From contig CAZHDO010000003.1 of NCBI GenBank assembly GCA_964531375.1, forward strand, positions 17,983 to 81,982: a DNA stretch of 64,000 nucleotides, given 5' to 3'. The position numbers were made by a program, and so were the translations under genes. Position 1 is the stretch's first letter. The number at the start of each line of letters is the position of its first letter. Shown here piece after piece: positions 17,720-46,474 of this stretch. This stretch comes from an uncultured Candidatus Saccharibacteria bacterium (GTDB taxonomy: Bacteria > Patescibacteriota > Minisyncoccia > Phycocordibacterales > UBA12445). Under the pieces are notes generated by a model. That model did not search any database. It was not told where the DNA came from and saw nothing but the letters and a program-made list of their open reading frames with translations.

Positions 17720-18733
17720 CTACCTTTTTGACGTTATTGATTGTTTATAAACATCAAGATGTTCAAGAGCAACACCAGTGCCTTTTACAACACAATAAAG
17801 AGCATCTTCTGCAAGTATCGCCTTAACACCCGTCTTTCTATAAATAAGTTCTGGTAAATTTCTAAGCATCGAAGTACCGCCTGTCATAATTATTCCATGG
17901 TCAATTATATCTGCTGAAAGTTCCGGTGGTGTCTCTTGAAAAACATCCTTAATCGCCTTAACTATTTGTTTTAATTCTTCAGAAATTGCCTTAACTATTT
18001 CATTGGTTGTAATTTCTGCAGTTCTAGGTAACCCACTTAAAAAGTCTCTACCCTTTATTGTCATTTTCATTTCATCGTCGACAATAATCGCAGAGCCAAC
18101 TTTTTTCTTTATCTCTTCTGCCGTCTGATCGCCAACCGCGAGATTAAAAGTTTTTTTAATATAATCAGTTATTGCTTGGTCAATTTTATTTCCAGCACAT
18201 TTTACAGAATTTGCAGTAACGATACCCCCCAAAGAAATAACAGCCACATCTGTCGTACCCCCACCAATATCTACCACCATATGTCCACGCGCCTCGTGAA
18301 TAGGAATTCCTGCACCTATAGCCGCAAGAATCGGCTCTTTAACCACATATGCCATTTTCGCACCTGCTCTAATCGTGGCCTCAATAACAGCCCTTCTTTC
18401 AGTGGAAGAAATACCGGCAGGAACAGACACCATTACTTCAGGTTTAAATATATCGATTTTTCTAAGAGATTTATTTATGTAATAACGCAACATCGCTTCA
18501 GTGATTCTATAGTCAGCGATCACACCATCTTTCATTGGTCGATAAGCAATAATATCGTCTGGAGTTTTACCGATCATATCTTTTGCGCCAGTACCAACAG
18601 CAATCACTCGATTATCCCTTTGAGATACAGCAACCACAGAAGGTTCATTTAAAACAATCCCACGCCCAGGCACAAAAACCAGCGTGTTTGCTGTTCCAAG
18701 ATCTATTCCTAATTTTCTAGTAAATAGCCCCAT
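17720..18733 (-). CDS. MreB/Mbl-family actin-like protein (second paralog)
   Basis: It carries GIDLGTANTLVF and MVVDIGGGTTDVAV motifs. It has the MreB fold but is distinct from the copy at 12793-13848. Confidence 0.85.
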   Translation of the reverse strand: MGLFTRKLGIDLGTANTLVFVPGRGIVLNEPSVVAVSQRDNRVIAVGTGAKDMIGKTPDDIIAYRPMKDGVIADYRITEAMLRYYINKSLRKIDIFKPEVMVSVPAGISSTERRAVIEATIRAGAKMAYVVKEPILAAIGAGIPIHEARGHMVVDIGGGTTDVAVISLGGIVTANSVKCAGNKIDQAITDYIKKTFNLAVGDQTAEEIKKKVGSAIIVDDEMKMTIKGRDFLSGLPRTAEITTNEIVKAISEELKQIVKAIKDVFQETPPELSADIIDHGIIMTGGTSMLRNLPELIYRKTGVKAILAEDALYCVVKGTGVALEHLDVYKQSITSKR

Positions 18734-21208: not shown

Positions 21209-22285
21209 TTAGATTTTAAACTCAATTACATCCCCATCTTTTACAATATATTCTTTACCTTCAGTCCTAAGTAATCCTTTTTCCCTAGCAACTCCAAACG
21301 AGCCTGAATCTAATAAATCTTGCCAATTTATTACATCAGCGCGAATAAATTTTTCTCTAAAATCTGTATGTATCGCTGTCCCAGCTTCTGGGGCAGGAGA
21401 ATTTCTTTTTGTAGTCCACGCACGAGTTTCATCTTCCCCTGTCGTAAGAAAAGTTATTAAATCTAAAATCTCATAACCCTTTTTTATAAGATCATTTATT
21501 CCGTCGTCTTTTACTTCAAGAGCCTTTCTGTATTCATTCTTTTCATCTCCTTCGAAAGCTGAAAGTTCCTGTTCGATAGCCGCATCTACAACAACATGAC
21601 TTGCCCCAGAACTTTCGAAGAACTTAATTAGATCGCTTGTATCCACTAGCTTGCTCCCGCTCTTGCTATTTAAAACATAAAGAATCGGCTTCATAGTTAA
21701 TAAATGAAGTGACTTTACGATTTTCTTTTCCTCGTCTGTAAAAATTAAAGTACTTGCTAATTGTCCTGCTTCAAGAACTTTTTGAAGTCTTTGTAAAATT
21801 TCATTCTCAATAATTGCAACTTTATCTCCCCTTCTTAGATCTTTACCAACATTAACAATCCTTTTGGAAACAGTTTCCATATCCGCAAGAATAAGTTCAA
21901 GATTTATCACCTCAATATCACTCATTGGATTTGGTTTACCAGAAACGTGAATTATATTTTCATCTTCAAAAATTCTCACAACCTCAGCAATAGCATCCAC
22001 TTCACGAATATTTGAAAGGAATTTATTTCCAAGCCCCTCGCCACTCGCTGCGCCTTTTACAAGTCCTGCGATATCTACGAATTCTATTGCTGTCGGAACT
22101 GTTTTTTTTGAATTTGAGAATTTCGTCAATTTATCCAACCTCTCATCTGGTACAGCCACCACACCAACAGATGGATCTATTGTGCAAAATGGATAATTTT
22201 CCGCAGGCACACACTTTTTTGTAAGAGCATTGAAAAGCGTTGATTTTCCAACATTTGGTAACCCGACAATTCCTATACTGAGCAC
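21209..22285 (-). CDS. ychF: Ribosome-binding ATPase YchF (Obg-family GTPase)
   Basis: It has a GTG start, a G1 motif IGIVGLPNVGKSTLFNALT, and a C-terminal TGS domain (GDVIEFKI). Confidence 0.9.
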   Translation of the reverse strand: MLSIGIVGLPNVGKSTLFNALTKKCVPAENYPFCTIDPSVGVVAVPDERLDKLTKFSNSKKTVPTAIEFVDIAGLVKGAASGEGLGNKFLSNIREVDAIAEVVRIFEDENIIHVSGKPNPMSDIEVINLELILADMETVSKRIVNVGKDLRRGDKVAIIENEILQRLQKVLEAGQLASTLIFTDEEKKIVKSLHLLTMKPILYVLNSKSGSKLVDTSDLIKFFESSGASHVVVDAAIEQELSAFEGDEKNEYRKALEVKDDGINDLIKKGYEILDLITFLTTGEDETRAWTTKRNSPAPEAGTAIHTDFREKFIRADVINWQDLLDSGSFGVAREKGLLRTEGKEYIVKDGDVIEFKI

Positions 22286-23916
22286 GCAAGTTGATGTTAT
22301 TTAATAAAAAAGGAGACAGATTGAGGGCACCGACTGAAGGAGGTATCCATCCATAAGATTCCGGAACGGGAATGAAACCAGATACCTGAATTATTTCCTT
22401 GTTGCCTACTACTCTATCTACAACGCTTTTAACTATGCCTTGTTTTCTCTCGAAATTCAAGCCATCGCCAAATCTCATCTTTGTGTCCAGAGCCAATGCT
22501 TCTATTTGTTTGATATCAGGAAATATTACATCATCAGGCATTTGTGATTCTTGTTTCGACTTCAGTATTTGATTATTAATCGACGACATTCTTTCTCTTA
22601 CCGGATCAACATACTTTTTATATTTATCTATATCCAACAAACCAGCCCCGAATAATTTAGTATATCGATCTTCTTCTTTTCCTAATTTATTTATCTCTTT
22701 CTTTAACGCTTCAACATTTACTGAGATAGTTTTAATCATTGATGGTCTCTCGTTTTTCCATCGCTCAAGATGCCACTTCATCAACTCCGGAGAAGTTAAG
22801 ATATTTTCAAGTTCTCTCCATACTTTTTTATCCGCCACCATCGCATTAATACTTCCCTCTTCACAAGTTGAAGGCAGAGGATATTTATAAATCCTATCGT
22901 TACATCGATAATAAAGATTTGTACCTTTCTTAGGACCGGCGCCGGATCTAGTACAACCGCAAGGACAATGTACTTTTTTTGAGAGAAGATATTCATATTT
23001 AGTACATCTATTAGAATTAATTTTATTAATCTGTAATTTTGCCTGAACACGATCAAACAATTCTTTATCAATAACTTTTATCGTTGGAATTTGAATCCAC
23101 TTATCTTCCGGATGAAACTTTCTGCTAGTCTTCTTTATCTTCTTATACTTTTCCTTCTTGATAGGATTAACCGGTTCAACCGCATAAGAAGCACCGAAAT
23201 GACTTTCTCCAATATATGACTTGTTTCTTAATAATGTAATGAGGGTACTTGTATTCCAAACGCCACGCTTACTTTTGCGAGGAGGGATTCCCAATTCTTG
23301 AAGCTTCTTCACAAGCCCTCTTATGGTACATCCCTCATCAGCCAACGCAAAAATCTTTCGTAAAGTATCTATCTCGTTTGGATTAATTTCATAAAAACCC
23401 TCTTTTTCTTTCGTCCTTAAAACAAAGGTCAAACCGTAAGGAGCTTCAGAAGTAATTATATGTCCCTCTCTGGCTTTTCTTAATTTTCCAATTCTACAAC
23501 GCTCAGCTATCTTTTTTCTTTCATATTCCGCAAAGACACCCCTAACCCCCATCATCAACCTGTCCTCATTGTTTTTTGACGGAGGCATAGTGACAAAGAG
23601 AGGCTCAATACCTAACATTCTCAATTCATCCATTACCAATTCTTGATAATAGTAACGCCTCGCCAGCCTATCATAAAACGGCGTCCCACATCTTCTTCTG
23701 AGCATCTAAACGAAGCTGATCAAGCTGTGGTCTTTCTAGAGTATCTCCGCTCCAACCCTCATCTTCATATACCTGAACAACCTCATATCCTTTGTCTTTG
23801 ATAAAATCATTCATCGCATCAATCTGGGTCTTTATAGTCTGCTCTTCTTCCTGACGGGCAGTAGAAACTCTGGCGTAAGTGGCAATTATTTTAATTTCTT
23901 TTCCTATGTTTTCCAT
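22143..23916 (-). pseudogene. Large serine recombinase (integrase) split by a frameshift: an 81-aa N-terminal ORF (23671-23916) and a 520-aa ORF (22143-23705) in different frames
   Basis: The N-terminal ORF carries the catalytic motif TYARVSTARQ. The 520-aa ORF continues with the resolvase core YDRLARR, a recombinase domain and a zinc ribbon (CPCGC...YYRCN). The frames switch at a T4 run near 23685-23700. The 3' tail of the ORF overlaps the ychF start by 143 nt. Confidence 0.7.
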
Positions 23917-24293: not shown

Positions 24294-24959
24294 TTACTTA
24301 TTTTCAGGAATATTATTTATTCCCTGATAAGCATTCTTGAATTCAACCAATTCACACATGCTGTTTATTCGAGAGAATATTCGGCTACCAACAGCTTCCG
24401 TTAAAGATGTCGGATTATGATTGGTGGTGAAGGAAGTGGATCTCAATTGCTGATATCTTTCATTAATGATCTCGTGATATTCTGAAATAATTGCCTCGGT
24501 GAATTTTTCCGTTCCGATATCATCGATAATTACAAACCCCGGATATACCTTTATATCTTCCAAGAAATCAACGGCTTCTCTCTTCTGAAGCTTTTCCAAT
24601 TCTGAATCGAATTCGGAATCAAATTTAAAAGATAATTTAATCGCATTGATGATCTTCTTAGATGCTATTACCGCCACCTTAGGAACTCCTTTCATAGAAT
24701 CTACATATTTTTGTATCCCGTAAACTGTATGGGTTTTCCCTGCCCTTGATACTCCGAAGAGACAGATACCGTTTTTCTCTAGTCTTCTCCCATTAGAATA
24801 TGAATCTAAAAGCTTATTTATAAAGCTAAAAATAAACTTTCCCTCCGGAGTTATTTTTTCCAATGTTGCCTCTCGGAACATATTCGGAATATTAATAACC
24901 TTCATCATCCCCCAAAATGTTTGTGAAATATCTTTCATTTTAATTAATTTTATTACCAT
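24294..24959 (-). CDS. DnaC/IstB-like AAA+ ATPase (helicase-loader type)
   Basis: It has a Walker A motif GVSRAGKTH and a Walker B motif FVIIDDIG, and lies adjacent to the initiator-like gene with a 20-nt overlap. Confidence 0.65.
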   Translation of the reverse strand: MVIKLIKMKDISQTFWGMMKVINIPNMFREATLEKITPEGKFIFSFINKLLDSYSNGRRLEKNGICLFGVSRAGKTHTVYGIQKYVDSMKGVPKVAVIASKKIINAIKLSFKFDSEFDSELEKLQKREAVDFLEDIKVYPGFVIIDDIGTEKFTEAIISEYHEIINERYQQLRSTSFTTNHNPTSLTEAVGSRIFSRINSMCELVEFKNAYQGINNIPENK

Positions 24960-26120: not shown

Positions 26121-26612
26121 TTAATTGATTATAACTGCGCTACCCCCGGCTTTAATTTCTTCTTCACTATTTCTTTTATATTCTCTTCTCCAATATGTTT
26201 TAAGTACCATATCGAAAATCGATCTACTATTATGAACAAATAATTTTTCAATAGTGTCCAGTGCATCATCAACATCCGTGAAATTAATTACAGCCCCCAA
26301 TTCCTTCAATTTATCCAGAAGATTTAAAAAAGAATCTCTATCCTTTGTAAATCTTTTTGCGGAGCCGGCAATTATATAATATTTCTTTTCGCTATCTTTC
26401 AAATAAGAAAGGAGATCTTTTACACCCGGATTTTCCAGACAATTAAACGCTGAGCCACTTTCTATAAACACCTTTTCGACCTCACAACCTAACTCTTCCG
26501 CATACTCTCTAGCCCATTTCTCTTGAGCCTTTAAATATTCTGCATTTCTTAATGGATCTTTTATCCCGGCTCTACAATAAATTACAGCACTTCTTTTGAT
26601 CTCGTTTTCCAT
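26121..26612 (-). CDS. Resolvase N-terminal-domain-like protein lacking the catalytic serine
   Basis: AVIYCRAGIKD aligns to the YxRVSTxxQ core of serine recombinases but reads R-A-G instead of R-V-S-T. The remainder follows the resolvase alpha/beta pattern. There is no DNA-binding C-terminal domain. Confidence 0.35.
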   Translation of the reverse strand: MENEIKRSAVIYCRAGIKDPLRNAEYLKAQEKWAREYAEELGCEVEKVFIESGSAFNCLENPGVKDLLSYLKDSEKKYYIIAGSAKRFTKDRDSFLNLLDKLKELGAVINFTDVDDALDTIEKLFVHNSRSIFDMVLKTYWRREYKRNSEEEIKAGGSAVIIN

Positions 26613-30160: not shown

Positions 30161-30163
30161 AAG

Positions 30164-31279: not shown

Positions 31280-34182
31280 ACATTCAGTAATACTGATACT
31301 GTAGAGCTAACTGTTATTTTTTCTGTTGGGACAATCACGTATCGCCACGGTTTTGCTATTCCATATTTACCAACATTCTTTGAAACTAACTCGCAATACT
31401 TATCTGCTGTTTTCTTTTTCTCTTGTATATCTAGATTGCCTATCTCCCCACTTGTTTTTACTTCAACCATTACAATTTCATTTTCAAATTCAACTATAAA
31501 ATCTGGCTCGTAGCGGTGTTGTGAATTGCCAAATTCGTCACGCCAATATAGTCCTTCAAATTGATTTGGGGCAGGTCGAAGCCAGTCTTCAACTGAACCA
31601 TCCCTGTCTAATAAATAAGCCAAACGTGCTTCGTCAGAGGAATCGAAACGATACATTGAGTGACAGGCCTTACTAAACCCCGTATAAATTCTATCTCTCG
31701 AAAAGCGATCAAATTGGGATTCTAGTGTGACAGGTTTCTCGTCAAAACTTCGGGAAATATTGTACTGTTCCAAATATGGTTTTGGTTCACGAATACCAGA
31801 CTCCAAATAGCCCTCGGACTTAAAATGTTTGTGATCCAATATTTGAGCGTATATTTCATTAGCTATTTGGCGTGTATTATTTTCTACCATCATCTTGAGG
31901 GTATTAACATCAGCCGTAAAAGATCTGTAGTATGTAGTCGCTTGTTTTGAAAGCTTGATCAACAATTCTTTCTGTTCATCGTAATCGATGAGAGGATGAT
32001 CGGAGTCAACTAAAACAGAAATGATCGTATTTTCAGGACTCTGAGCCCGACCCTCACCAAGACTCGATACGCGAGTAACTTCAGTCTCCCTACGTCCTTG
32101 ATGGGCAACACCAAATAAATCTTTTTCTTCTTTCCCCTGCAACGACTGCTCGAGTATTGAAGCTTCCGTAGCAAATCTACTTAATTTCTTTATATCCAAA
32201 TTAAAATCATCTATAACAAGCTCTCCATAGTGAGGTGTGAGCATTAACCTTGGAATAGGGATGTTACGAATCTCAATAGTTTCTTTAGAAATACGTCCGA
32301 TGCTCTCAAGCTCTTTTTTAGCAGGCTCACTTAAAATATTAAACAGTGAACTCTCTTCATATACAGTGCCACCAGTCTGCCCAACTCCTATTTTTCTTGC
32401 CTCATTCTTTGCGGTTATCTCCACAATTTCATTTACCTTATTTTGTATCGTTGCCACCTTAACATCCTCCGGGGTGTCTTCTCCTATAACAGCACTGACT
32501 GTTTTTGTCGCTTGCTCTTGGATTTCCTGCATTATCACCGGACTAGCCTTAATTTGATCCTGTATGCTTGTTACGAATGCCGACTGAACCTCAATAATTT
32601 CTTTTACTACTTTTGTATCATCAGTTGAAATACTTTCAATATTTGTTGGTTGAATAAGCTTAGAGTTGCGTGCTTCTTCAATAACTTTCGCGTAATTGTC
32701 ATGGGCAACAATCATCACACGATCTACTTTTTTGTTTCCAGTTTTTTCCCCGTATGGTAGACGGAGACCTCGGCCAATTGTTTGTTCAGTTAAAATCTGT
32801 GCAGCCGAAGATCGTATTGGTGCAATGGTATAAATATTAGAAACATCCCAACCCTCCTTAAGCATGTTCACGTGGATAACAATTTCTACAATATTATCAG
32901 GATGTTCAAGTGATATTAATTTTTCAATCGTTTCATCTGCTTCATCTCCCCTTGTTTTTGTATGAACCTCAATCACCCTTCCCTTATAGACACCGCCCCT
33001 AAAATCATCACTATCAATTAGTTTACGGAGCGCGCTGGCGTGGGCTGTATCTTTGGCTACTACAAGCATCACGGGCTTCACCTCCTGCTTATCATTTTCG
33101 AGCGCATAATCTTTTAAAGCTAACTTTGCTCGTTCGTGGAAAAAAGCGGCGAGCTGTAATTTACGAGCGTCTGTTTCTATAGATTCAGCGTCCAAATGAC
33201 TAAAATCGACATCAGCTTCCGTGCCAATCCATGGATCTTTCACATACCCATCACGAATAGCATCACCGAGATTATAGACATAGAAGATGTTTTTCTTGAG
33301 AACAAGTTCCGCACCCCTCCTTGTAGTAGTTGGGGCAAGATATGGCGTAGCGGTAAATTCAAGTCCAAATAACGGATCAATACGGTCAAGAGAACTCATT
33401 GCAGCATCGGCGTGATAGTGATGCGATTCATCCATCAACACAACCAGATCATCGAGTGACGCTAGGTGATCAAAGTAAGATAAAAGCCTCCCGTCTTCTA
33501 CTCCAAAAATTTCCGAACCTTTTGTAATACCCTTTTCCTTTTCTATATCTTTTTGTGCAAACTGCTGAATATTAAAAATATTTATTTCAATCTTATTTGC
33601 AAAGAGTTGTGCCGTTCGGCTTTGCACGTAGTTTTCTTTAATGATAATTTTTACATTTGAAGTAGTAAGTTCTTCAATCCCACGGAAAACATATTTGGGA
33701 TTATTGGCTTTGCTAAAATCATCTACCAGTTTACGGTAGATGGTATTACCCGGAGCAACAATCAAAAAATGTTGAACGCCATAAACAAGATAGAGATATG
33801 TCACAAAAGCACCCATGAGACGAGTTTTTCCCACACCAGTGGCAAGAGCGAAAGTATATGCTGGAAAGGTTCGTTCAAAAGCCTGAAATTGCTTCAATCC
33901 AGGGATTGTGTGCGTGTATTCTTTTGTCGCTTCTTCGATATCACTAACACTCCCACGGTTCCCCCTCTTCATTCTTGCTAATACTTTTTTACCAGCATCC
34001 CCCTCTAGAAAATCAGCGAAAAAATGCAAACTTTTTTCTTGCGGAGTTCGCAGGCTCATTGTGTTAGTTATATATTGTAGGGCTTGTTCTTTTTTCATAT
34101 TATTATTCATCAGAATCACTTTCTTCTTCAATTTCTTCCATTGCCCGCTCTTTAATAGGAAGTAGATACTCTTTCTTTCCAA
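31276..34182 (-). CDS. res: Type III restriction enzyme Res subunit (SF2 helicase plus C-terminal PD-(D/E)xK endonuclease)
   Basis: It has a motif I ATGVGKT, a motif II LMDESHH, and a C-terminal YEPDFIVEF...VMVEVK nuclease motif. The likely true start is the ATG at 34110 or 34098, overlapping or abutting the Mod stop. At about 940 aa it is typical of Type III Res. Confidence 0.75.
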   Translation of the reverse strand: MERKSIYFLLKSGQWKKLKKKVILMNNNMKKEQALQYITNTMSLRTPQEKSLHFFADFLEGDAGKKVLARMKRGNRGSVSDIEEATKEYTHTIPGLKQFQAFERTFPAYTFALATGVGKTRLMGAFVTYLYLVYGVQHFLIVAPGNTIYRKLVDDFSKANNPKYVFRGIEELTTSNVKIIIKENYVQSRTAQLFANKIEINIFNIQQFAQKDIEKEKGITKGSEIFGVEDGRLLSYFDHLASLDDLVVLMDESHHYHADAAMSSLDRIDPLFGLEFTATPYLAPTTTRRGAELVLKKNIFYVYNLGDAIRDGYVKDPWIGTEADVDFSHLDAESIETDARKLQLAAFFHERAKLALKDYALENDKQEVKPVMLVVAKDTAHASALRKLIDSDDFRGGVYKGRVIEVHTKTRGDEADETIEKLISLEHPDNIVEIVIHVNMLKEGWDVSNIYTIAPIRSSAAQILTEQTIGRGLRLPYGEKTGNKKVDRVMIVAHDNYAKVIEEARNSKLIQPTNIESISTDDTKVVKEIIEVQSAFVTSIQDQIKASPVIMQEIQEQATKTVSAVIGEDTPEDVKVATIQNKVNEIVEITAKNEARKIGVGQTGGTVYEESSLFNILSEPAKKELESIGRISKETIEIRNIPIPRLMLTPHYGELVIDDFNLDIKKLSRFATEASILEQSLQGKEEKDLFGVAHQGRRETEVTRVSSLGEGRAQSPENTIISVLVDSDHPLIDYDEQKELLIKLSKQATTYYRSFTADVNTLKMMVENNTRQIANEIYAQILDHKHFKSEGYLESGIREPKPYLEQYNISRSFDEKPVTLESQFDRFSRDRIYTGFSKACHSMYRFDSSDEARLAYLLDRDGSVEDWLRPAPNQFEGLYWRDEFGNSQHRYEPDFIVEFENEIVMVEVKTSGEIGNLDIQEKKKTADKYCELVSKNVGKYGIAKPWRYVIVPTEKITVSSTVSVLLNV

Positions 34183-35800
34183 ATTGGCACGCTTTCAAAA
34201 TTGACTGTGGTATTTTCTTAATAGTTATACGACCATCCACCTTTTCACATCCAGGTTCAAATTTCTTTGGACAAATAAGTAACGTCTCGTTGAAACCTAA
34301 ATGGCTCACAATCTGTTGGACCATCGCTACAGATAACATTTGTGTAGTTATATAAATACTATTGTTGCCTTGGCCCTTGCCATGTTTCCGATAATCAGAC
34401 GGACTTGGAGCGAACGTGTAGTTGGTAAGCTTACACATAGCGCGAATAAGCTTAGTGTCATTGTAATAGCTATCAATCACAGGATTACCAAATTCATCAA
34501 TTACTACAAAGCTTGGCGCCAGCTCGTAAAACTTAAATCCACCTCCTCCGTGCCAATTCACAGCTTCGCTGATTCCATTAGGATCTTCGGCGTCAACGAC
34601 TGCCTTCATTCGTTTATGCACGTGCGAATAAGCGTGATCTCCCATTTCTATCCCAATATAATTAAAATTCATTTTATGAGCTACTGCCGTTGTTGTGCCT
34701 GAGCCAAGAAACGAATCCAGAATCCAATCCTTACTAGACAAATTTGCTATTTCAAAAAAAGTCTTAATAAGCGATTCTGGTTTTTTAGAGTTTCGAAATT
34801 CAACCACACCTTCATATCCAACACGGTTGAAAGCTGCAGAAGCATCAAAAAAGGATGGATACGGAAGTTCTTTTGACGAAATTCGTGTTTGGGGTACTCC
34901 TTGAAAATAATTACCATTTTTCTTTTTAATATTTTCTGGTGAAAGAAAATATCTGTGGCCAGTTCCGTCATCTCCCATATTAGGGACCTCGTACAAAACA
35001 TTATGACCATCACTTTGAAGTCGTCCTTCAATATGAGCAACATAAAATCTACCACTACTGTTTCCTTCTCTTAACCCACCTCGAATATTAATCTTCTTAA
35101 GTCCAGTTTTATTTCCATCTGAACGGGTTAATTCATACTCACCAAATTTAAAAACATGACACTCCTTATTTCCCAGCAGAAGTTTTTCTCCGGCTCCAAT
35201 TGTTTTTACAGTCCATTCATAACCTTCATACGGATCAGCCGTGACCAACTGTTTTCTTTTTGAAATATTAAATTGATTTGTTTTTTGATAACAGTGTACA
35301 TATTCAGCGACATCGTGAATATCTTTGTCTCCCTTCAACATTCGCTCTGAGTGTCTAACTTTTATAATAAACGACGTAATAAAATTGTTTCTTTGGAAAA
35401 CTTCATCTAATAGGACTTTCAGATATGCTTGCTCTCCATTATCAATTTGTACAAAAATTACCCCATCATCCTTCAAAAGCATTCTTAACAACTCCAATCT
35501 AGGCCTCATAAGTGAGAGCCAAGTACTATGTTCCACACTGTCATCATAATGTTCAAAAGCATTACCGGTATTGTATGGGGGGTCAATATAAATGCATTTT
35601 ACTTTTCCTTCATACTCAGGAAGAAGCGCTTTTAGAGCGAGTAGATTGTCACCATGAATAATCATATTCTCCGTATCTTTGTCGCCATAGGACAAATCAG
35701 TTCGTTCTTCCAAAATGCGTGGTTCAATGTTAGCAATATCATACTCAGGATTATTCTTCCCGATCCATGTAAGCTCTAGTTTTTGTTTGTTGTTTGACAT
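34103..35800 (-). CDS. mod: Type III R-M Mod subunit (beta-class N6-adenine / N4-cytosine DNA methyltransferase)
   Basis: Motif IV IYIDPPYNTG precedes motif I LDSFLGSGTT, which is the beta-class permutation. The gene lies immediately upstream of, and is coupled to, res. Confidence 0.8.
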   Translation of the reverse strand: MSNNKQKLELTWIGKNNPEYDIANIEPRILEERTDLSYGDKDTENMIIHGDNLLALKALLPEYEGKVKCIYIDPPYNTGNAFEHYDDSVEHSTWLSLMRPRLELLRMLLKDDGVIFVQIDNGEQAYLKVLLDEVFQRNNFITSFIIKVRHSERMLKGDKDIHDVAEYVHCYQKTNQFNISKRKQLVTADPYEGYEWTVKTIGAGEKLLLGNKECHVFKFGEYELTRSDGNKTGLKKINIRGGLREGNSSGRFYVAHIEGRLQSDGHNVLYEVPNMGDDGTGHRYFLSPENIKKKNGNYFQGVPQTRISSKELPYPSFFDASAAFNRVGYEGVVEFRNSKKPESLIKTFFEIANLSSKDWILDSFLGSGTTTAVAHKMNFNYIGIEMGDHAYSHVHKRMKAVVDAEDPNGISEAVNWHGGGGFKFYELAPSFVVIDEFGNPVIDSYYNDTKLIRAMCKLTNYTFAPSPSDYRKHGKGQGNNSIYITTQMLSVAMVQQIVSHLGFNETLLICPKKFEPGCEKVDGRITIKKIPQSILKACQFGKKEYLLPIKERAMEEIEEESDSDE

Positions 35801-35808
35801 AATTATAA

Positions 35809-36387
35809 TTATTTTAGATGTGGACGAAGGAATATCTCGATTTCTTTTATAGCACCATCTACCTTTTTTGAAAACTCATCATTAACTCCAATGTTATATA
35901 TAATACTATCAGTACTATCACTAGAGCGTCCATCTAAATATAAACTTAGTCCGCTATATAGCTCTCTTACTAATGCATCTAGATTTAATTGTGCTTTCGT
36001 TGCCTCAGACCCCCATGATACTTCTGCTTCAAGTAATTCGGCTTCAAGATTTGTCCAAGCTTCTCTCACTTTATTCCATCGAACTGAATATACAGCCCTA
36101 TTCATCTTTTGATTGTCACTATATTCCTCTGCTTTAAATCCATTAACCTCAAGAGCCGACTGCATTTCGCCCAATGGAATGAAGGGGTTTCTCACAAATT
36201 TTATAGCATCTCTTAATTTTAGAGAGGCCTTTAGATACTTTCTGGCAATCTCGTAGTTTGTTTTTCCCATCATCTGCTTCCTCCACCCAACTAATCCAAA
36301 AATGGCAACCCCAGCTACAATAACAGCAGATATAGATGTTATAGAATTTGCGACAGTATTAAATATGATTTCTGTACTTGTAGACAT
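35809..36387 (-). CDS. Small membrane protein (192 aa) with an N-terminal TM helix and a helical C-terminal domain
   Basis: It has a TM segment SITSISAVIVAGVAIFGLVGW. It lies 2 nt after the SNF2 stop and 8 nt before the mod start. Confidence 0.45.
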   Translation of the reverse strand: MSTSTEIIFNTVANSITSISAVIVAGVAIFGLVGWRKQMMGKTNYEIARKYLKASLKLRDAIKFVRNPFIPLGEMQSALEVNGFKAEEYSDNQKMNRAVYSVRWNKVREAWTNLEAELLEAEVSWGSEATKAQLNLDALVRELYSGLSLYLDGRSSDSTDSIIYNIGVNDEFSKKVDGAIKEIEIFLRPHLK

Positions 36388-36389
36388 AA

Positions 36390-39300
36390 CTATATTATCT
36401 TCCAGCTTATGGTGAATAATATTTCTAACTTCGATCTTTGTTTTAACTGAGCCTCTACTTTCTTCAACAAATCCTCTTTTTTTAATTCAACCTCATCCTG
36501 TGCCTCGTATAATTTTCTACGCATTTCATTTCTTTTTTTCTCAGAATCCTTTATTTCCCGTTGAGCTTTAAGTTTATCATCAAGGTCAATAATTTTCTTA
36601 GCATTTGTCTTGGCTGCCTTAATATCAATATCAAGCTTTCTCAAATCAAGTTCGAGAGCTTTCTTTACATCTTCTGACCAATTATCCAGTTTATCCACTT
36701 CGTCATCAAAAAATTCTGCATTCCTTTGCATAATTTGTCCTGAAATTACCGAGATATTTTGATTTTCAAGCTCTTCTATTTTTTTGCGTGCCTCAGGTGA
36801 AAATATTTTTGGTGTAACCGACTGTGCAGAAAGTGAAAATAACTTTTTTATACTGTCCGATTCGATTGACTCCCCTGTTTCATTAATAGCAGACACAACG
36901 ACAGCATCTTCTGATTCAAAAGCTTCAACTGTATAATTTGAGACTTTTAACATTCCGCTTTTACCAACCAGTGGTTCTAGTACAGAAATAATTGATGAGT
37001 GATTTGAGTAATCAAAAACAATCTCTGCTTCATCAACTTGTTTGTTTTTTACTTCATTCAAAATCCTCTGTGCTAAAGAGTGTCCGGGGCGATACACGTG
37101 AGCATCTTCTACATTTTTACCGATTTTATATGGACCCTGATCGATATCCTCGTTTGGAAATGGATTGGTTTTAAGAGAAAAAGAATATTCGTGATCGGAA
37201 AAATCAGCATTATCACCCAAATAGTAACGAGTAACATCCCACAACCAGCGATTATATGTGTCCAAATAGGCTTCGCCTTCTTTTTTATTGATCTTTAATT
37301 TTTCATGCACCTCCGCATCGAAATTTTCTAAGAGCTTCTGTCGAGTGTCGGATAAGTTACTTTTTATACTCTCGTCCATTTCTTCCTGAAGTTTATCAAA
37401 GGCAATATTGATGTCTTCAGACGTTCTGCATGTTTGATAAATACCGGCTATGCGTTTTTCGAAATCGACACCGGACTCAATAGATCCTAACACTTCATCA
37501 CTCGCACCGAACACACCTTTAAACAATTTGAATTTCTGATCCAACAGTTCATATACACGCTGGTCTGCTGCGTTTTTTCTATTAACAAAGTTGATTACGA
37601 CGACATCGTGTTTCTGACCATAGCGATGACAGCGACCAATACGTTGTTCAATTCTTTGTGGATTCCACGGTAAATCATAGTTAATTACCAAAGAACAAAA
37701 TTGTAAATTAACACCCTCAGCTCCCGCCTCAGTGGCGATCATAATTTCTGCTTCATCTCTAAAATATTCAATGAGTGCCGCTCGAGTATCAGCTGTTTTT
37801 GAACCAGTTACTTTGTCAGTGTCCTTATTTCTTGCAAGCCAACTTTTATATATCTCTTTTGATTTTTCATCGTTATTTGAACCGTTAAACAAAACAATTT
37901 TATCCTTATATCCATTATTAGCGAGGAGGGTCTCAGCAAGATATCGTTGTGTGATAGTAGATTCAGTGAAAATTATAGCTTTCTTTTTAGCACCCAACTC
38001 AGCAGTCATCTCAAATCCTTTTTTTAGTGCAGTAATTAAGGCATCTCCTTTGGAGTTCGTGTATATTTTCTGCGCGAGATTACGGAATTTTTCCAGATCA
38101 GCTTTTTCCTGCTCCATGAGTACAATATCTTTCTCTGTGAGAGCTTTCTTTTCCTTCTCATCTTCATCGTCTTCGCTCTCCTCATCATCAATCCATTCAT
38201 CTGATATTTCTGGAAGAGCTTCGAAATCTTGAAGGAGCGAAATAGTACCATCATCTTGTTGTGGTATTTTTGCTTTTGTGTCCACGATCAACTGCCTGAG
38301 CTTATATACCAGCTTATCTAATGTACTAGCGATAGCGAAGGAAGACGATGCCAAAAGCTTTCTCAAGATGAGTGTCATGAGCTGACGCTGACTAAAAGGT
38401 AAAGCGTAGAGCTTTGCCCGCTGAAGATACTCGGACATACCATCATAAAGTTGAACTTCCTGTTCGGTTGGAATATAGTCTTGCGTTATTGGTTTTCGCT
38501 CTGTGTAATTGATATATTCTAGTACTTGGCGACGGAGTGTACGGATACAAACAGGTTTTAGGCGATTGCGTAAATCAACGAACATTTCCTGTTTGGGCTC
38601 AAGAAGACCAACTTCGTTTTCATATATATCTTGCTCACGGGAAACTCTTGCATAATTTGCTTTAAAACTTTTAAGATCCCCGAATACATGATCATCAATA
38701 ATACTAACAAGTCCATAAAGTTCGAGAAGGGAGTTTTGTAATGGGGTCGCAGTAAGTAAAATTTTCGGTACTTCTTCTAATGCTTTCTTTATCTCTTGCG
38801 CAATTTTATTGCTTTTTTTATATACATTGCGTAAACGATGTGCTTCATCAATAACCGCTAAATCCCATTTTGTTTGTTTTATATATGAAGATTTAGATCG
38901 AGCAAAGTGATAAGAACAAATAATTATTTTGTCTTCTTGATTAAATGGATTCAGGTTTCCGTCTTTTATATATTGATTAAAAGATTTTGCCTCAAGAATT
39001 ATCGAAGGTAAAAAGAATTTCTCCGAAAGTTCATCGTTCCATTGTTTTCGTAAGCTCGAAGGGACAATCAAAAGAATACTCCTCTTTCTCTCAGCCCATT
39101 TTTGAGAAAGAACTAACCCGGCCTCAATAGTTTTTCCAAGACCAACCTCATCAGCTAAAATTGCGCCCTTCGAAAGCGGTGAGCGAAAAGCAAAAAGGGC
39201 CGCCTCAATTTGGTGTGGGTTTAGGTCTACTTGAGCATTAGATAGTGTAGAAGAAAGTTTTTCCAAACTATTGGAAGAACATCGTTTTGTCAGCTCATAA

Positions 39301-39419
39301 GCAAAATATTTAGCGTGTTGGGCGGTTATTTTCATTTTGCCAGTATACAATAAAGAGGCGGAAAAATCGCCTTGAAAGAATGGCGTTTGTATTTTACAAA
39401 CCTCGCTTTCTATTCCCAA
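36390..39419 (-). CDS. SNF2-family (SWI2/SNF2, RapA-like) helicase with a C-terminal coiled-coil extension
   Basis: Motifs: I ADEVGLGKT, II DEAHRLRN, III LLLTATPLQNSL, VI RIGRCHRYGQ. The roughly 350-aa C-terminal extension ends in a coiled-coil. The track start is a TTG. An in-frame ATG, MKITAQHAKYF, at 39335 is the more likely start. Confidence 0.8.
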   Translation of the reverse strand: MGIESEVCKIQTPFFQGDFSASLLYTGKMKITAQHAKYFAYELTKRCSSNSLEKLSSTLSNAQVDLNPHQIEAALFAFRSPLSKGAILADEVGLGKTIEAGLVLSQKWAERKRSILLIVPSSLRKQWNDELSEKFFLPSIILEAKSFNQYIKDGNLNPFNQEDKIIICSYHFARSKSSYIKQTKWDLAVIDEAHRLRNVYKKSNKIAQEIKKALEEVPKILLTATPLQNSLLELYGLVSIIDDHVFGDLKSFKANYARVSREQDIYENEVGLLEPKQEMFVDLRNRLKPVCIRTLRRQVLEYINYTERKPITQDYIPTEQEVQLYDGMSEYLQRAKLYALPFSQRQLMTLILRKLLASSSFAIASTLDKLVYKLRQLIVDTKAKIPQQDDGTISLLQDFEALPEISDEWIDDEESEDDEDEKEKKALTEKDIVLMEQEKADLEKFRNLAQKIYTNSKGDALITALKKGFEMTAELGAKKKAIIFTESTITQRYLAETLLANNGYKDKIVLFNGSNNDEKSKEIYKSWLARNKDTDKVTGSKTADTRAALIEYFRDEAEIMIATEAGAEGVNLQFCSLVINYDLPWNPQRIEQRIGRCHRYGQKHDVVVINFVNRKNAADQRVYELLDQKFKLFKGVFGASDEVLGSIESGVDFEKRIAGIYQTCRTSEDINIAFDKLQEEMDESIKSNLSDTRQKLLENFDAEVHEKLKINKKEGEAYLDTYNRWLWDVTRYYLGDNADFSDHEYSFSLKTNPFPNEDIDQGPYKIGKNVEDAHVYRPGHSLAQRILNEVKNKQVDEAEIVFDYSNHSSIISVLEPLVGKSGMLKVSNYTVEAFESEDAVVVSAINETGESIESDSIKKLFSLSAQSVTPKIFSPEARKKIEELENQNISVISGQIMQRNAEFFDDEVDKLDNWSEDVKKALELDLRKLDIDIKAAKTNAKKIIDLDDKLKAQREIKDSEKKRNEMRRKLYEAQDEVELKKEDLLKKVEAQLKQRSKLEILFTISWKII

Positions 39420-39479: not shown

Positions 39480-41240
39480 TCAATCCAATTCCTTGTAGTC
39501 CACTTTTAAGAATCGGTTTCTCCTGTTGAAACTGGCTCTCGTATGCTCCTTTATTTTTAGTTTAATTTGTTTTTGCCTTTCTTCGTTCTCGATCTTATCC
39601 CTATTAAGAGTGAGAATATATTGAAAATTTGTTTTAACCTCCTGTTCGGCTAAGAAGTTTAAACTCTGAACCAGTGTATCCTGATCAACATCAAATATAT
39701 TATCGTGTATTAGAAACATTGGATGCCTTTTGTTTGTGTCTTTGTTGAGCATTAAGCTTATGTCGTAGATGAATACTTTGGTTCTATCAACACTGTGACT
39801 ACCATCGTCCGGTATTCTCAAGTCCAATTTGACAATCTGTTTACTAGACGCTTTATTTACTGTCGATATGTCAAAAGAAACCCCTGCGTTTCCCATAATA
39901 TACTCATTTATTTCTGCAATTGTTTTATTGAAATCCTTAATAACCTTACTTATCTCGAATATCTTTGCATCTAGCTCAGAAAACAGATTGTCTTTTTTAA
40001 TTCTCAAGATAACCACTTCACGATTAATTCTTTCAAATTCGTCTAGATTAGCTTGAGTGGTAGCGTATTCATCCTTTTTCTTCGTATAAGTATAAAAACC
40101 TTCTTTTAAGATACTAAGTGAATCATTTTTATCGACATGAATAAGGAGGTCAGCTCTTTTTTCATCCAAAGAATTAAGCTCTTCTTGAATTTTTTGAACC
40201 TCTGACCTTACTTCATCGGCCCTCTCATTTATAAGAAGATTTTGATATTTCTCAATCTTCTTTTTAAAGTCCAAAATTTCATTTATTGACTTGGAAACGA
40301 TCTCGCCTAGACCCGCCTTAAATTTATCGTAAACAATCTGAATGTCACTCGTATTTATATTTTCTACCTTAGGCATAGACTCAATGCGCCTAAGCTCATA
40401 CTTTAAAGCAATCTGTCTCGTTCTAAGTTTTTCTATATTAGAATCTATTTTAACTAATATATCTTGGTTCTGTTGGAAAATTGGTTCAACTCTAAATTTA
40501 TCCAGAGAATCTCCAGCCCTAGATAGCTCCAATTCAAGAGCGTTAAGTTCCGCCTTAACATCAGATATTTTTTTCTTCCCTGAATCCGTTATTCTTTTCT
40601 TAATATGACCTTGTGTTTGAGATTTTTCTTCAATCTCCTTAATAATCTTCTTCATTTCCTTAACAAGAAGAGGGTTAATACCAAAGAGGTATAAATGTGT
40701 CTTAACTAGATCCGAATTCGGAATTTTTTCTCTAAGATCATAACAGTTTACGATATCCTTAAATTCTGAGTTTTCGTCTCTAATCAGTGGGCCTATAAGT
40801 TCTCTAAAACTTGGTCTGTCTAATTTATCTTCCTTATTTTTTTCATAAAAAAGATTAGTCAAATACAAAAGGGCATCGTTCGTGTTTTTATACAAACTAA
40901 TATCACCATCCACTTCTATTGACGGTTTGTCCGGGTCATTTATTGTCCGTTCAATCGTCACTTTTTTGCCGTCTATTACTAAGTCCAAACAAATTCTTGT
41001 ATCATAAGAAAACTTATCGAAAGGAATCTTGGTCACACGACTAGAATCGGCATCTTTAAAGAGACAAAAATTAATAAATTCAACCGACATTGATTTTCCT
41101 ACTCCATTAGTTTTTTTATCTTTACGGGGTCCTGATTTCGCTTCAGAAACTTTTTCACCTAAAATAAGGTTAACACCTTCTCTAAATTCAATAGGATCAA
41201 AAGTTGGCGGTATTGAGTATAATTTTAGTATTTTAATCAT
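39480..41240 (-). CDS. ABC/SMC-like ATPase with a long coiled-coil insert (DUF2326-like; ABC-3C-type ATPase candidate)
   Basis: It has an N-terminal P-loop KTNGVGKS, about 250 aa of coiled-coil, and a C-terminal Walker B/D-loop region PMFLIHDNIFDVDQDTL. Confidence 0.6.
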   Translation of the reverse strand: MIKILKLYSIPPTFDPIEFREGVNLILGEKVSEAKSGPRKDKKTNGVGKSMSVEFINFCLFKDADSSRVTKIPFDKFSYDTRICLDLVIDGKKVTIERTINDPDKPSIEVDGDISLYKNTNDALLYLTNLFYEKNKEDKLDRPSFRELIGPLIRDENSEFKDIVNCYDLREKIPNSDLVKTHLYLFGINPLLVKEMKKIIKEIEEKSQTQGHIKKRITDSGKKKISDVKAELNALELELSRAGDSLDKFRVEPIFQQNQDILVKIDSNIEKLRTRQIALKYELRRIESMPKVENINTSDIQIVYDKFKAGLGEIVSKSINEILDFKKKIEKYQNLLINERADEVRSEVQKIQEELNSLDEKRADLLIHVDKNDSLSILKEGFYTYTKKKDEYATTQANLDEFERINREVVILRIKKDNLFSELDAKIFEISKVIKDFNKTIAEINEYIMGNAGVSFDISTVNKASSKQIVKLDLRIPDDGSHSVDRTKVFIYDISLMLNKDTNKRHPMFLIHDNIFDVDQDTLVQSLNFLAEQEVKTNFQYILTLNRDKIENEERQKQIKLKIKEHTRASFNRRNRFLKVDYKELD

Positions 41241-41464
41241 TTTTTATAGATATATGGCTCAGCAAATTCGACTATCCCTGCCTGATACAAAAAAATAAGG
41301 GAAAATATAACCTGTCTGTGATTTATCGTGCCTAATTCCTGTTTCAAATTTACAAAAATTTCATCTAACATTAACTTTTGTTCTTTCGCTTTTGAAATCT
41401 TTTTTAAAATCAAAAAGCCGAGATAAGGTGAAGATGTTTTAATTTTTTCATCTTTACTAATCAT
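41237..41464 (-). CDS. Small alpha-helical protein (75 aa), a candidate middle component of the three-gene ABC ATPase module
   Basis: It is coupled by 4-nt overlaps to both of its neighbours. Confidence 0.4.
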   Translation of the reverse strand: MISKDEKIKTSSPYLGFLILKKISKAKEQKLMLDEIFVNLKQELGTINHRQVIFSLIFLYQAGIVEFAEPYIYKK

Positions 41465-42420
41465 TTCTCATTTGGAAATACATTGCACTTAATAAGCTCA
41501 TCTAATAGATAAAACCTTATCGCCAGATAATCGTGTTTTTTACCCTTATTACTAATCTCGCTTGAAAAATACTCAGTTAGATTATCAAGGGCCTTTTTAG
41601 GATCACCGTCGGCTTGAGTTAAAAAGATATCGCTTTTAATTCTTAAGAAATTTCGTATAAAATCAATTTTTACAGAATCAAGACCTAGTTTTTCATCCAC
41701 CTCACTGCGAGCCAGAGAATATCTCGGCAACAAATCAATTATCTGAGATTTTAAAAACTTTGATTTATCTGCAAACCGATACTCAATCTTGTGGCCCGGA
41801 TCCGGTTCCTCTGTCCAATTCTTATCGCTTATTTCTTTATTATTACTCAAGAAGACAACAAGATCAGCAATCGTCTCTACCTCATTCGTTAGGACCTGTT
41901 CAGATTTACGATCCTTTTGACTATCAAACTCATCTCTCAAAAGATCATGTATCTCTCTTATTTTTGAAGCATCAAGCGGCCTAATCACCTTAACTAATTT
42001 TGACAAGGTTATAATATCTTCATTTTGATCGAAAGACACATTCTTGGGACCCTTGATTTTTGCCTTAAAATTAAGTTTCTTCGTTGTTATTATTAAGAAT
42101 TTTAAAGAGTCAAATTTAGAAGAGAGTCCACTGTCTTCGAATTTTTTTATTGTTTCCTTAATTTTCTTAAGAGTAGTTTCCGATGTAACTTGGAATGAAA
42201 TCTTTCTTGCTCCATCACCCAGGTCAACAGATGGGAAACTCGACTTAAGTATATTTAAATTAACTAGATTTAAATCAAAAACCTTATTCAATAATTTACA
42301 AAAAACATCTTCTAAAAAGATATTTATATCTGTAAGCCCGTTGCTATTACTATTCTTAGTCGATGATTCAATACGAGAAAAGTAATCAATTATTTGATTG
42401 ATAAGATTTTGATTCTCCAC
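41461..42420 (-). CDS. Hypothetical protein (319 aa); the first gene of the block and a candidate sensor/effector partner of the ABC ATPase
   Basis: It overlaps the 75-aa gene by 4 nt. I recognised no catalytic motif. Confidence 0.4.
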   Translation of the reverse strand: MENQNLINQIIDYFSRIESSTKNSNSNGLTDINIFLEDVFCKLLNKVFDLNLVNLNILKSSFPSVDLGDGARKISFQVTSETTLKKIKETIKKFEDSGLSSKFDSLKFLIITTKKLNFKAKIKGPKNVSFDQNEDIITLSKLVKVIRPLDASKIREIHDLLRDEFDSQKDRKSEQVLTNEVETIADLVVFLSNNKEISDKNWTEEPDPGHKIEYRFADKSKFLKSQIIDLLPRYSLARSEVDEKLGLDSVKIDFIRNFLRIKSDIFLTQADGDPKKALDNLTEYFSSEISNKGKKHDYLAIRFYLLDELIKCNVFPNEK

Positions 42421-42613
42421 GAAATATATTATAATCTATTTTTTATTTTTTACTAAATTCTTTTCAAATAATCATGTGACAAAACGATCCAAATCGCCTT
42501 GAAGAAATGACGGTTCTGTTTTAAAAACCCGGATTTTATATTTAGTTAAAATACATATTCTTATTATCCGCAATCTTTTACTTTCCTCCATCTGTTGATA
42601 ACATTCAGTCATC

Positions 42614-43606
42614 ATGGAACCACTATTTAAAGAAGCGGACAATAAAATAATTAAGTTATCTGAAAAGATAATGGCATTAAGAAAGAGACCGCTATTGATT
42701 TTAGATTTAGAGAATGTCGCATATTGGACTACTATTAGGCTGGAAAATGAATTAAAGGGAAAAAAATTGTCAAAACTTGATGTTCTGCTTAATGCACCTA
42801 TGGGAGGTCGCATAGAGCCGGCCTTCAATATTGTCAAACTCATAAGGAAACATGCCGAAGCGGTAGAGATGATAATTCCTTATCGTGCAAAAAGTGCCGG
42901 CACGCTCATCTGTTTAGGAGCAGACAAATTACTGATGAATACTACTGCCGAGTTAGGACCACTTGATACTCAGAACAGGATCCACAAGGAAGAAGAATTT
43001 GAATCAACACAAAATATCTTTAAGGCCCTCGAGCAGATTCAACAGCATGCTCTCGATGGTTTTAATTCTGCCATAACCACAATTAAAAAACGAAACCATA
43101 ATTTAAAAATAGATGATGTGGTAAAATTGGCTGCCATGTTTTCAGGACAAACATGTAGTTCTTTGTACAATAAAATAGATCCTGAAATGCTCGGAGAATA
43201 TGCCCGTCTACTTGAAATGTGCGAGAAGTATGTGTTTGAAGTGTTAATAAGATATGCTGGGCGTGATTATGAGGATGCAAAAAAAGTTACTAAAAAATTG
43301 GTTTATGGTTATCCGAATCATAATTTTATTATTGATATACAGGAGTCAGAAAAATTAGGTTTACCGGCAGAAGAAGTAAGCGATGATATTAAAGAAATTA
43401 TTGATGATCTAAAGATAGAGCTTCGCGAAAAAGATCTTACAAGACAGTCTTTCCTCCTTGAAACCGGAATTTCTTATCAGGAGAAACGAAGATGGTCACT
43501 AATTAAACTTTTAGAGTATCCAACCAAAGAAACCCCGGAGAAAAATAAGCCGGTTCAAAAACCAAAAGAAACTGAGGTGGTGGACAAGAACATAGAGAAA
43601 AAATAA
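42614..43606 (+). CDS. ClpP-fold serine protease of the SDH (serine dehydrogenase proteinase) / S49-like family
   Basis: NAPMGGRIEPAFNIVKLIR and RAKSAGTLICLGADK correspond to the ClpP/crotonase-fold Ser protease core. It is transcribed divergently from the 13-gene block. Confidence 0.55.
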   Translation: MEPLFKEADNKIIKLSEKIMALRKRPLLILDLENVAYWTTIRLENELKGKKLSKLDVLLNAPMGGRIEPAFNIVKLIRKHAEAVEMIIPYRAKSAGTLICLGADKLLMNTTAELGPLDTQNRIHKEEEFESTQNIFKALEQIQQHALDGFNSAITTIKKRNHNLKIDDVVKLAAMFSGQTCSSLYNKIDPEMLGEYARLLEMCEKYVFEVLIRYAGRDYEDAKKVTKKLVYGYPNHNFIIDIQESEKLGLPAEEVSDDIKEIIDDLKIELREKDLTRQSFLLETGISYQEKRRWSLIKLLEYPTKETPEKNKPVQKPKETEVVDKNIEKK

Positions 43607-44148: not shown

Positions 44149-44997
44149 TTAATAATCACAGACATTAAGGTCCGATAATTCTAGACCAAGTGCCTCTGCC
44201 AAAGATTGTTTAGCCTCATATGTTCCACCAATAGCATCTATGATACCCGTCTCTAAAGCTTTTGGAGGTAAAATCGAAGAACCATCGGCTAGTTTTGCAA
44301 CATCTTCGTATTTAAGATTTCTATTCTTGGCAATGGCTCCAACAAATACTTTATGGAATTCTTTTAGATCACTCATAACCATATTCTTCTCTTCTTGTGT
44401 CATCGGCCTATCACCACTAAGCATATCTTTATACTTTGCGGATGTCAGTTGATTATATGTATATCCATCTTTAGTATTTTTTGCGGCGTTATCAACAAAG
44501 GATTGAGTTATTCCTATAGAGCCAATATCTGAAAATTCTGAAGCGAATATCTTTTGTGCTCCTGTAGCGGCCCAATAAGCGGCGGATGTTCCTTGGTCTT
44601 TAATAACAGCAATAGTTGGCTTGGTAGATCTCTTAAGAGCACCGGCAATTTCTTCTCCTGCCACACCGCTACCGCCTGGCGAATTTATCTCTATGATAGA
44701 AGCATAAATATTTGGATCTTTCTCTATCTTTTCCAAAGTACCCACAATGTCTCCCCCTACTGTTTCGTCTGTCCATTCTTCTACTCCTCCATATTTATAT
44801 TCCACCAAGTCTCCATTGATTTTAATTCTAGCGACATTACAAGAACTATCCGCCTCAGATGTGTTTTGATCAGAGAGTTCTCTGTCTAAAACAAGAATCG
44901 AAGCGGAAGAGAATAAGACTAAGAAAAAAAGGACGATGGTGGTAATTATGGCTATTTTTAAATTGAACTTAGCGAGTAGGGTTTTTATTTGTTGCAT
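44149..44997 (-). CDS. sppA: Signal peptide peptidase SppA (S49 family, 36K type)
   Basis: It has an N-terminal TM segment and the motifs EINSPGGSGVAGEEIAGAL and DQGTSAAYWAATGAQKIFA. Confidence 0.7.
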   Translation of the reverse strand: MQQIKTLLAKFNLKIAIITTIVLFFLVLFSSASILVLDRELSDQNTSEADSSCNVARIKINGDLVEYKYGGVEEWTDETVGGDIVGTLEKIEKDPNIYASIIEINSPGGSGVAGEEIAGALKRSTKPTIAVIKDQGTSAAYWAATGAQKIFASEFSDIGSIGITQSFVDNAAKNTKDGYTYNQLTSAKYKDMLSGDRPMTQEEKNMVMSDLKEFHKVFVGAIAKNRNLKYEDVAKLADGSSILPPKALETGIIDAIGGTYEAKQSLAEALGLELSDLNVCDY

Positions 44998-46174: not shown

Positions 46175-46474
46175 TTATTTTCTAAGCTCTCGAACCTGAC
46201 AATAATGGAATAGACACACTTGTTTTGGGTACCTAGCTATCACAGAACCATCAGGACCTTTCTTCTCGACGATGGTCATAGAGCGCAAACTTTTTTCTCC
46301 GAGCCTAACTTTGTAGCCATTCTCCAACCATTTCTTGTAGGTCATACAGTGGATATTTGGATCATACTCATCGGCGGCTTCCTGACCGTATCGCTCTAAT
46401 ATTTGGAGCCTCACAGCTTCAAATGTTTCCTTCGACCCTGTATAGCCCGACTTCACCGTAATTTTTAGTGACAT
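46175..46474 (-). CDS. Hypothetical protein (99 aa)
   Basis: ORF only. Confidence 0.35.
   Translation of the reverse strand: MSLKITVKSGYTGSKETFEAVRLQILERYGQEAADEYDPNIHCMTYKKWLENGYKVRLGEKSLRSMTIVEKKGPDGSVIARYPKQVCLFHYCQVRELRK

Follow-up and report, generated by a model that had tools for sequence, protein, structure and literature searches.

What do three tightly packed genes do in the genome of an uncultured Candidatus Saccharibacteria bacterium, and do they act together? The genes lie at positions 39480 to 42420 of a 64,000-nucleotide stretch of contig CAZHDO010000003.1 (assembly GCA_964531375.1, contig positions 17,983 to 81,982), hereafter the window, and encode proteins of 319, 75, and 586 amino acids (aa). 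An initial annotation had proposed an ABC-three component (ABC-3C)-like three-gene conflict system. Our analysis bears this out, with a DUF2326 ATPase, an MC6 middle component, and an ATPase fold closest to YydD and LmuB. We conclude that the triad is very probably a self-contained defense operon of the ABC-3C/short-Lamassu family, SMEK-nuclease subtype, with a mechanism assigned by analogy, because the DUF2326 ATPase, the MC6 protein, the SMEK_N effector, the architecture, and the protein lengths all fit short Lamassu. It is a new instance of an already catalogued subtype, found in a new genome.

ABC-3C systems, type II Lamassu, and DdmABC form one family composed of LmuA, the ‘middle component’ LmuC, and the SMC-like LmuB, in which LmuA combines an enzymatic N-terminal domain with a docking C-terminal domain (PMC10586767). 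The survey of Haudiquet et al. (PNAS 2025, PMC12663957) describes short Lamassu as having an LmuB close to 600 aa in length, a small LmuC, and an LmuA with a C-terminal bundle of 5–6 helices. It also reports a diversified Walker B motif, hhhhD[Q/S/T/E], zero to two zinc hooks, and effector domains that include ‘HNH, SMEK, and Lipase’.

All three genes of the triad are on the minus strand. The LmuA-like effector gene (41461..42420, 319 aa, GTG start) is followed by the LmuC-like gene of the MC6 family (41237..41464, 75 aa) and then by the LmuB-like gene for an SMC/Rad50-like ABC ATPase of the DUF2326/YydD family (39480..41240, 586 aa), giving a compact cassette of approximately 2.9 kb. As the initial annotation had described, the genes overlap by ATGA, the 75-aa open reading frame (ORF) sharing a 4-nucleotide stop/start overlap with each of its two neighbors, at the first junction with aaaaATGAttaaa and at the second with gagaaATGAttagt. 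The GTG start of the effector gene is supported because many homologs align from residue 1. From reading of the sequence and a consensus scan, the probable promoter region spans 42421..42470 on the minus strand. It contains TATAAT 9 nucleotides 5' of the GTG and a -35/-10-like pair at 42467..42438, both of them consensus matches only, and promoter-like sites found in this region by the scan did not exceed the shuffled expectation. The same three-gene set is found in dozens of genomes, so this arrangement is far beyond chance. For conservation we took one genome per species, which yielded 80 loci; motifs and neighbors were counted over 86 loci.

The 319-aa protein matches Pfam SMEK_N at residues 9–146 (E = 1.3e-39) and also matches the NCBIfam SMEK_N model. 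Residues 4–166 match the solved ‘Mrr domain from Kordia jejudonensis Mrr-APAZ pAgo’, with E = 1.3e-19 when the single sequence is used and 3.1e-35 with an effector profile of 31 sequences. The Kordia domain, named SMEK or Mrr, is the nuclease module of the short-Argonaute defense system SPARMA (PMC10810196; bioRxiv 10.1101/2025.04.08.647717). Within the effector family, E37, D66, D69, Q77, S80, and K86 are invariant, and E37, D66, Q77, S80, and K86 are common to the effector and the Kordia chain. We consider E37, D66, Q77, and K86 putative catalytic residues. Judged by these alignments, the N-terminal domain is a SMEK/Mrr-type PD-(D/E)xK nuclease of the variant form D...QxT...K. The initial annotation had seen no recognizable catalytic motif in this protein and had suggested that it might be a new effector or sensor domain. 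Both statements are now superseded: the protein consists of a SMEK/Mrr nuclease domain and a helical C-terminal domain.

In the AlphaFold2 model of the effector (mean predicted local distance difference test, pLDDT, 84.6), an alpha/beta N-terminal domain is joined by a low-confidence linker (residues 168–176) to six helices at residues ~173–310, which form a bundle of ~145 aa. The C-terminus is an invariant tail, C312-N-x-F-P-N317. A reading of the effector as part of a prokaryotic Argonaute (pAgo)-like system was ruled out, as the C-terminal domain is a helical bundle and not APAZ, and neither Argonaute nor APAZ was matched by any of the 26 window ORFs scanned between 18.8 and 51.3 kb.

We also searched for fusions of this C-terminal domain to other effector domains, using phmmer against 1.84 billion representative proteins. 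Nearly all of the 176 matches were proteins with SMEK_N plus the C-terminal domain (~320 aa), proteins with the C-terminal domain only (170–190 aa), or shorter possible fragments, and there was no clear alternative fusion among them. The recurrent 170–190-aa class, which has the helical domain without the SMEK nuclease, includes P0168, P0208, P0286, and about 25 others. Such a protein is encoded upstream of the middle component and ATPase at two loci, L015:5242-5760 and L082:1445-1939. These proteins may be effector-less variants or decayed genes.

In 83 of the 86 loci, the gene immediately preceding that of the ATPase encodes a homolog of the 75-aa protein. Among the three exceptions, the contig ends at that point in two, and the third has an ORF of the right size that is unmatched. 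The 75-aa protein matches Pfam MC6 (‘ABC-3C system Middle Component 6’) with E = 1.3e-4 and 22.3 bits, which is below the curated cutoff of 27.2 bits. Because 35 of its 39 orthologs match MC6 (best E = 5.9e-10), the protein is, from its sequence relatives, a divergent MC6 member. Against solved structures, the middle-component profile returned only an insignificant match to a Fur winged-helix (E = 0.022).

The 586-aa ATPase has a Walker A motif, K43-T-N-G-V-G-K-S50, and a Walker B motif, F-L-I-H-D513-N514 followed by IFDVDQD, both invariant in 18 diverse homologs. Pfam DUF2326, a comparison called for in the initial annotation, is matched by the C-terminal half of the head (E = 1.3e-22). Over its full length, the protein matches the PADLOC model PDC-M68B (E = 7.8e-57), and some database homologs bear the JGI label ‘YydD (DUF2326 family)’. 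The AlphaFold2 model, made with the 18 homologs as input (mean pLDDT 84.1), shows an ABC head split by a near-wholly helical arm of ~275 aa (residues 175–449). This arm is short, with ~130 residues per strand. The NGxGKS P-loop, the Walker B motif FLIHDN...D, and the coiled-coil insertion of the initial annotation are therefore all real features of the protein.

Sequence comparisons of the ATPase with solved structures, using either the single sequence or its profile, gave only coiled-coil noise, and its structural relatives were identified by Foldseek. The top match in the PDB was a chain of Bacillus subtilis YydD (E = 3.7e-25, template modeling score 0.62). After YydD came the LmuB chains 9uxh_F, 9hqx, 9hqu, and 9ux7 (E = 1.7e-12 to 3.5e-10), from three different structures of V. 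cholerae, S. enterica, and Bacillus Lamassu. The heads of SMC, Rad50, and Smc5/6 rank after LmuB, from E = 8.3e-11, and the margin over them is small.

The motifs of the ATPase have several peculiarities. At all 86 loci, the Walker B Asp is followed by Asn or Gly, giving the motif hhhHD[N/G], and a catalytic Glu is found at this position in none of them. The H-loop position reads QYILTLN, again without a His in 86 of 86 loci, and the coiled coil has a CxxC zinc hook in 0 of 86. Because of the Walker B Asn or Gly and the missing H-loop His and zinc hook, the ATPase probably binds ATP and hydrolyzes it poorly or not at all. Around the apex of the coiled coil, P290, E293, Y304, L311, G312, F325, K326, K328, and Q333 are invariant in the 18 homologs. 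By analogy with solved Lamassu, we infer that these residues correspond to the docking site of the LmuA C-terminal domain and LmuC.

Nearly all of the 80 genomes have the triad with its gene order unchanged, so the two small ORFs are kept beside homologs of the ATPase. These genomes span Patescibacteria, clostridial and bacillar Gram-positives, Bacteroidota, Pseudomonadota, Verrucomicrobia, Chlorobiota, a cyanobacterium, Acidobacteriota, and Bacteriovoracaceae, with the closest ATPase relatives in Patescibacteria/Paceibacterota. In almost every locus, the gene immediately upstream of the middle component encodes a full-length effector homolog (29–70% identity). Divergence from the window proteins is correlated across loci, with a Spearman rho of 0.51 for ATPase and effector and 0.64 for ATPase and middle component. 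The neighborhoods of the triad are unrelated between genomes: they include ftsA/ftsZ in one Paceibacterota genome (L005), lon in Gottesmanbacteria, and a TetR regulator and an nSTAND3 protein in Paenibacillus. Mobilizable and conjugative plasmids carry the triad as well. A phage origin was considered and rejected, the homolog in the phage collection being a single short, unannotated record.

The SMEK effector is fixed within the close clade. More distant DUF2326 operons on plasmids (22–24% identity) keep a bona fide MC6 (56–74 bits), and here the effector is exchanged on a conserved core of ATPase and MC6. In the operon of an Agrobacterium vitis plasmid (L089:3004-5713), the effector is an HNH endonuclease, and in that of a Rhizobium bangladeshense plasmid (L088:2860-5731), it is an ‘ABC-three component system protein’ bearing Pfam CTD10, a C-terminal domain (CTD) family. 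The CTD10-bearing effector has its own conserved N-terminal domain, DFELIK...GDKKSDG...FQCYAPE. The A. vitis operon adjoins genes for a CHAT-domain protein and a TrlF-like ATPase.

The analysis establishes the order of the genes, the identities of their domains, the similarity in fold, and the conservation and mobility of the cassette, whereas complex formation, the trigger, and effector release are proposed from Lamassu complexes of solved structure. In these, LmuA, LmuB, and LmuC assemble at 1:2:1, with an inactive effector monomer bound at the head-distal part of the LmuB arms; DNA ends then cause effector release and tetramerization, followed by non-specific DNA cleavage (bioRxiv 10.1101/2025.06.23.660979). 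By analogy, complex formation by the triad would consist of a dimer of the 586-aa ATPase holding one 319-aa effector via the effector's helical C-terminal domain, with the 75-aa middle component bridging the effector and the coiled-coil arms. The N-terminal SMEK nuclease would thereby be sequestered as an inactive monomer. The trigger would be an encounter of the ATPase heads with foreign DNA structures, such as the free ends of a replicating phage or plasmid, upon which the effector would be released. Once free, it would oligomerize and its PD-(D/E)xK nuclease would degrade DNA indiscriminately, so that the infection is aborted or the plasmid eliminated. The ATPase itself probably works as a switch that binds ATP and hydrolyzes little or none of it.

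One alternative keeps the family and changes its mode of action. Since a catalytic Glu or Gln, the H-loop His, and a zinc hook are all missing from the ATPase, the DUF2326/MC6/SMEK lineage could be a mechanistically distinct branch of Lamassu, with an ATP-binding latch, a trigger other than DNA ends, and possibly a new docking fold in the effector C-terminal domain. We consider this unlikely. If true, such a branch in episymbiotic Patescibacteria would represent a new sensing mode and not just another Lamassu.

A second alternative comes from the genes next to the triad. Directly downstream on the same strand is a second defense module of six genes (28661-39419, minus). Its genes encode, in order, an SNF2 helicase that is DrmD-like (699.8 bits, below the NCBIfam equivalog cutoff of 950 bits), a 192-aa protein with no assigned function, a Type III methyltransferase, a Type III restriction enzyme with a C-terminal TnsA-like endonuclease domain, a 371-aa protein with no assigned function, and a DUF2779/Cas4-like nuclease. 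The composition of this module differs from canonical DISARM. The triad could then be an accessory of the SNF2 and Type III restriction-modification (R-M) genes within one composite, co-transcribed system that is DISARM-like or ‘embedded’. Consistent with this, the triad is only ~60 nucleotides from the SNF2 ORF, and no convincing terminator was seen in the gap. R-M adjacency also recurs occasionally elsewhere, as the triad directly follows an R-M pair at two other loci. In Robiginitomaculum (L086:373-4760), this is a Type III methyltransferase and restriction enzyme pair with 43% and 34% identity to those of the window, and on the Sphingomonas taxi plasmid STP2 (L087:822-2767), it is a DpnII-type pair. 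Against this, SNF2 adjoins the triad in 0 of the 80 related genomes, including relatives at ~80% identity; the sole other SNF2-adjacent copy is a read-assembly contig with an identical ATPase (L090). A Type III pair is found at only 1 of the 80, and elsewhere the triad stands alone among housekeeping genes, for example at the ftsA/ftsZ locus mentioned above. Obligate coupling is ruled out by the 0 of 80 count for SNF2, and we find it decidedly improbable that the triad is not autonomous. Because SNF2 is adjacent in none of the 80 genomes and homologs of the Type III pair in only one, we treat the co-location as stacking within a defense island and not as one system.

With the triad taken as an autonomous short-Lamassu operon, its trigger could still differ from that of the solved systems. 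The ATPase might be a hydrolysis-dead ATP sensor that responds to something other than DNA ends, such as a fall in ATP or a phage protein, in which case the canonical mechanism would not be transferable. The motifs seen in 86 of 86 loci (hhhHD[N/G], QYILTLN without His, no zinc hook) agree with this, as do the lack of sequence similarity to solved LmuB or LmuC and the modulation of canonical Lamassu activity by ATP concentration. However, according to PMC12663957, short Lamassu systems with a divergent Walker B, often hookless, still sense DNA ends, and we regard this version as very improbable.

It is hardly credible that the 586-aa protein is instead a housekeeping SMC/Rad50/RecN-like ATPase for repair or chromosome maintenance with the small genes as repair cofactors, for although Foldseek also matches SMC, Rad50, and Smc5/6 heads (E = 1e-10 to 1e-8) and Lamassu is thought to derive from SbcCD (PMC12663957), the protein's nearest folds are YydD and then LmuB and not a housekeeping SMC/RecN/RecF group, its distribution is patchy, with variable neighborhoods and plasmid carriage, there is no Mre11/SbcD-type partner, the fixed partner carries a nuclease domain common to an Argonaute defense system, the catalytic Glu, H-loop His, and zinc hook are missing in every locus, and PGAP names the neighbors of related proteins ABC-three component system proteins.

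The surroundings of the triad suggest a mobile origin for the region as a whole. A large serine recombinase (23705..22143) lies beside the housekeeping gene ychF, and a small resolvase (26612..26121) and a DnaA-like ATPase (24959..24294) are encoded nearby. Because of the large recombinase beside ychF and the small resolvase, the defense island at ~22–48 kb may be an integrated mobile element. A 99-aa ORF (46175-46474) has a weak, sub-threshold match to the ArdC anti-restriction N-terminal domain (E = 8e-4), which would fit such an origin. Divergent from the triad is a gene for an SDH-type ClpP-like serine protease (42614-43606, plus strand), followed by one for an S49 peptidase (44149-44997, minus strand) that matches a PHROG head-maturation protease (E = 4e-42). 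The ClpP-like protease also matches a PHROG family, and the two could be prophage remnants or defense-associated proteases. The window is cellular DNA, as it encodes an H+-pyrophosphatase. Across positions 1-64000, the 1-kb bins almost without exception have a negative GC skew, the long ORFs up to ~52 kb lie nearly all on the minus strand, and no tRNA genes were found in the 64 kb. This small, Patescibacteria-like genome thus has a stacked defense island in which the Lamassu-like triad is joined by an SNF2 helicase, a Type III R-M system, and a Cas4-like nuclease.

Several comparisons weigh against placing the triad in short Lamassu. No PADLOC v2 Lamassu model is matched at E of 0.1 or better, the only match being to the candidate PDC-M68B, and the V. 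cholerae, S. enterica, and Bacillus Lamassu proteins have no similarity to the triad proteins at the level of hidden Markov models. Solved LmuB chains are unmatched by the ATPase profile at E up to 1, and solved LmuC chains by the middle-component profile at E up to 10. To these can be added the sub-cutoff MC6 score of the 75-aa protein and the Walker B motif, which has Asn or Gly at all 86 loci versus the Gln, Ser, Thr, or Glu given for short Lamassu in PMC12663957. The effector C-terminal domain matches none of the curated Pfam ABC-3C CTD models, and profile-profile comparison by hhalign with 20 CTD10-bearing effectors gave only E = 0.055. The CTD10 alignment is colinear, pairs C-terminal domain with C-terminal domain, and reaches both C-termini, where C-[ND]-[VI]-F-x-N is common to the two families; kinship with CTD10 is suggestive only. 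A profile-profile comparison with the HNH-type effector returned nothing. The link to the studied Lamassu systems is thus one of fold, architecture, and the curated MC6 family, and not one of direct sequence homology. Lastly, the searchable literature yielded no experimental test of a SMEK-type or DUF2326-type system. SMEK/DUF2326-type Lamassu has apparently never been tested experimentally, and this compact, cross-phylum cassette is a reasonable candidate for doing so.

Among the known systems, PDC-M68 shares the full-length ATPase match described above. It is a computational, unvalidated candidate, and its models are unmatched by the effector and middle component at E of 0.1 or better. The B. 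subtilis YydB-YydC-YydD system provides the top structural match, YydD, which is also 586 aa in length. The two ATPases have only 18% identity in the structural alignment, and the partner of YydD is YydB, not a SMEK protein; PDB entry 9a6c is titled as an integrative model of YydD with YydB, built from crosslinking mass spectrometry and deep learning. SPARMA from K. jejudonensis has the homologous nuclease domain, with the E, D, Q-x-T-S, and K residues kept in both, and each of the two systems couples this nuclease to a separate sensor module. Here, this sensor is an SMC-like ATPase with a middle component rather than Argonaute/APAZ, and the nuclease is followed by the ~145-aa helical bundle rather than APAZ.

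The closest overall likeness is to short Lamassu. Both have the order effector, small middle component, SMC-like ATPase of ~600 aa (here 75 aa and 586 aa for the latter two), and in both the effector joins an N-terminal enzymatic domain to a C-terminal bundle of 5–6 helices, of which the window protein has six. They also share a short coiled-coil arm, a divergent Walker B motif, and the absence of a zinc hook, a trait of some short clades. Related operons exchange their effectors and are carried in defense islands and on plasmids, and, YydD apart, no solved structure matches the ATPase better than the LmuB chains. The triad leaves current understanding of this widespread defense family unchallenged and adds one more correctly recognized instance to it.

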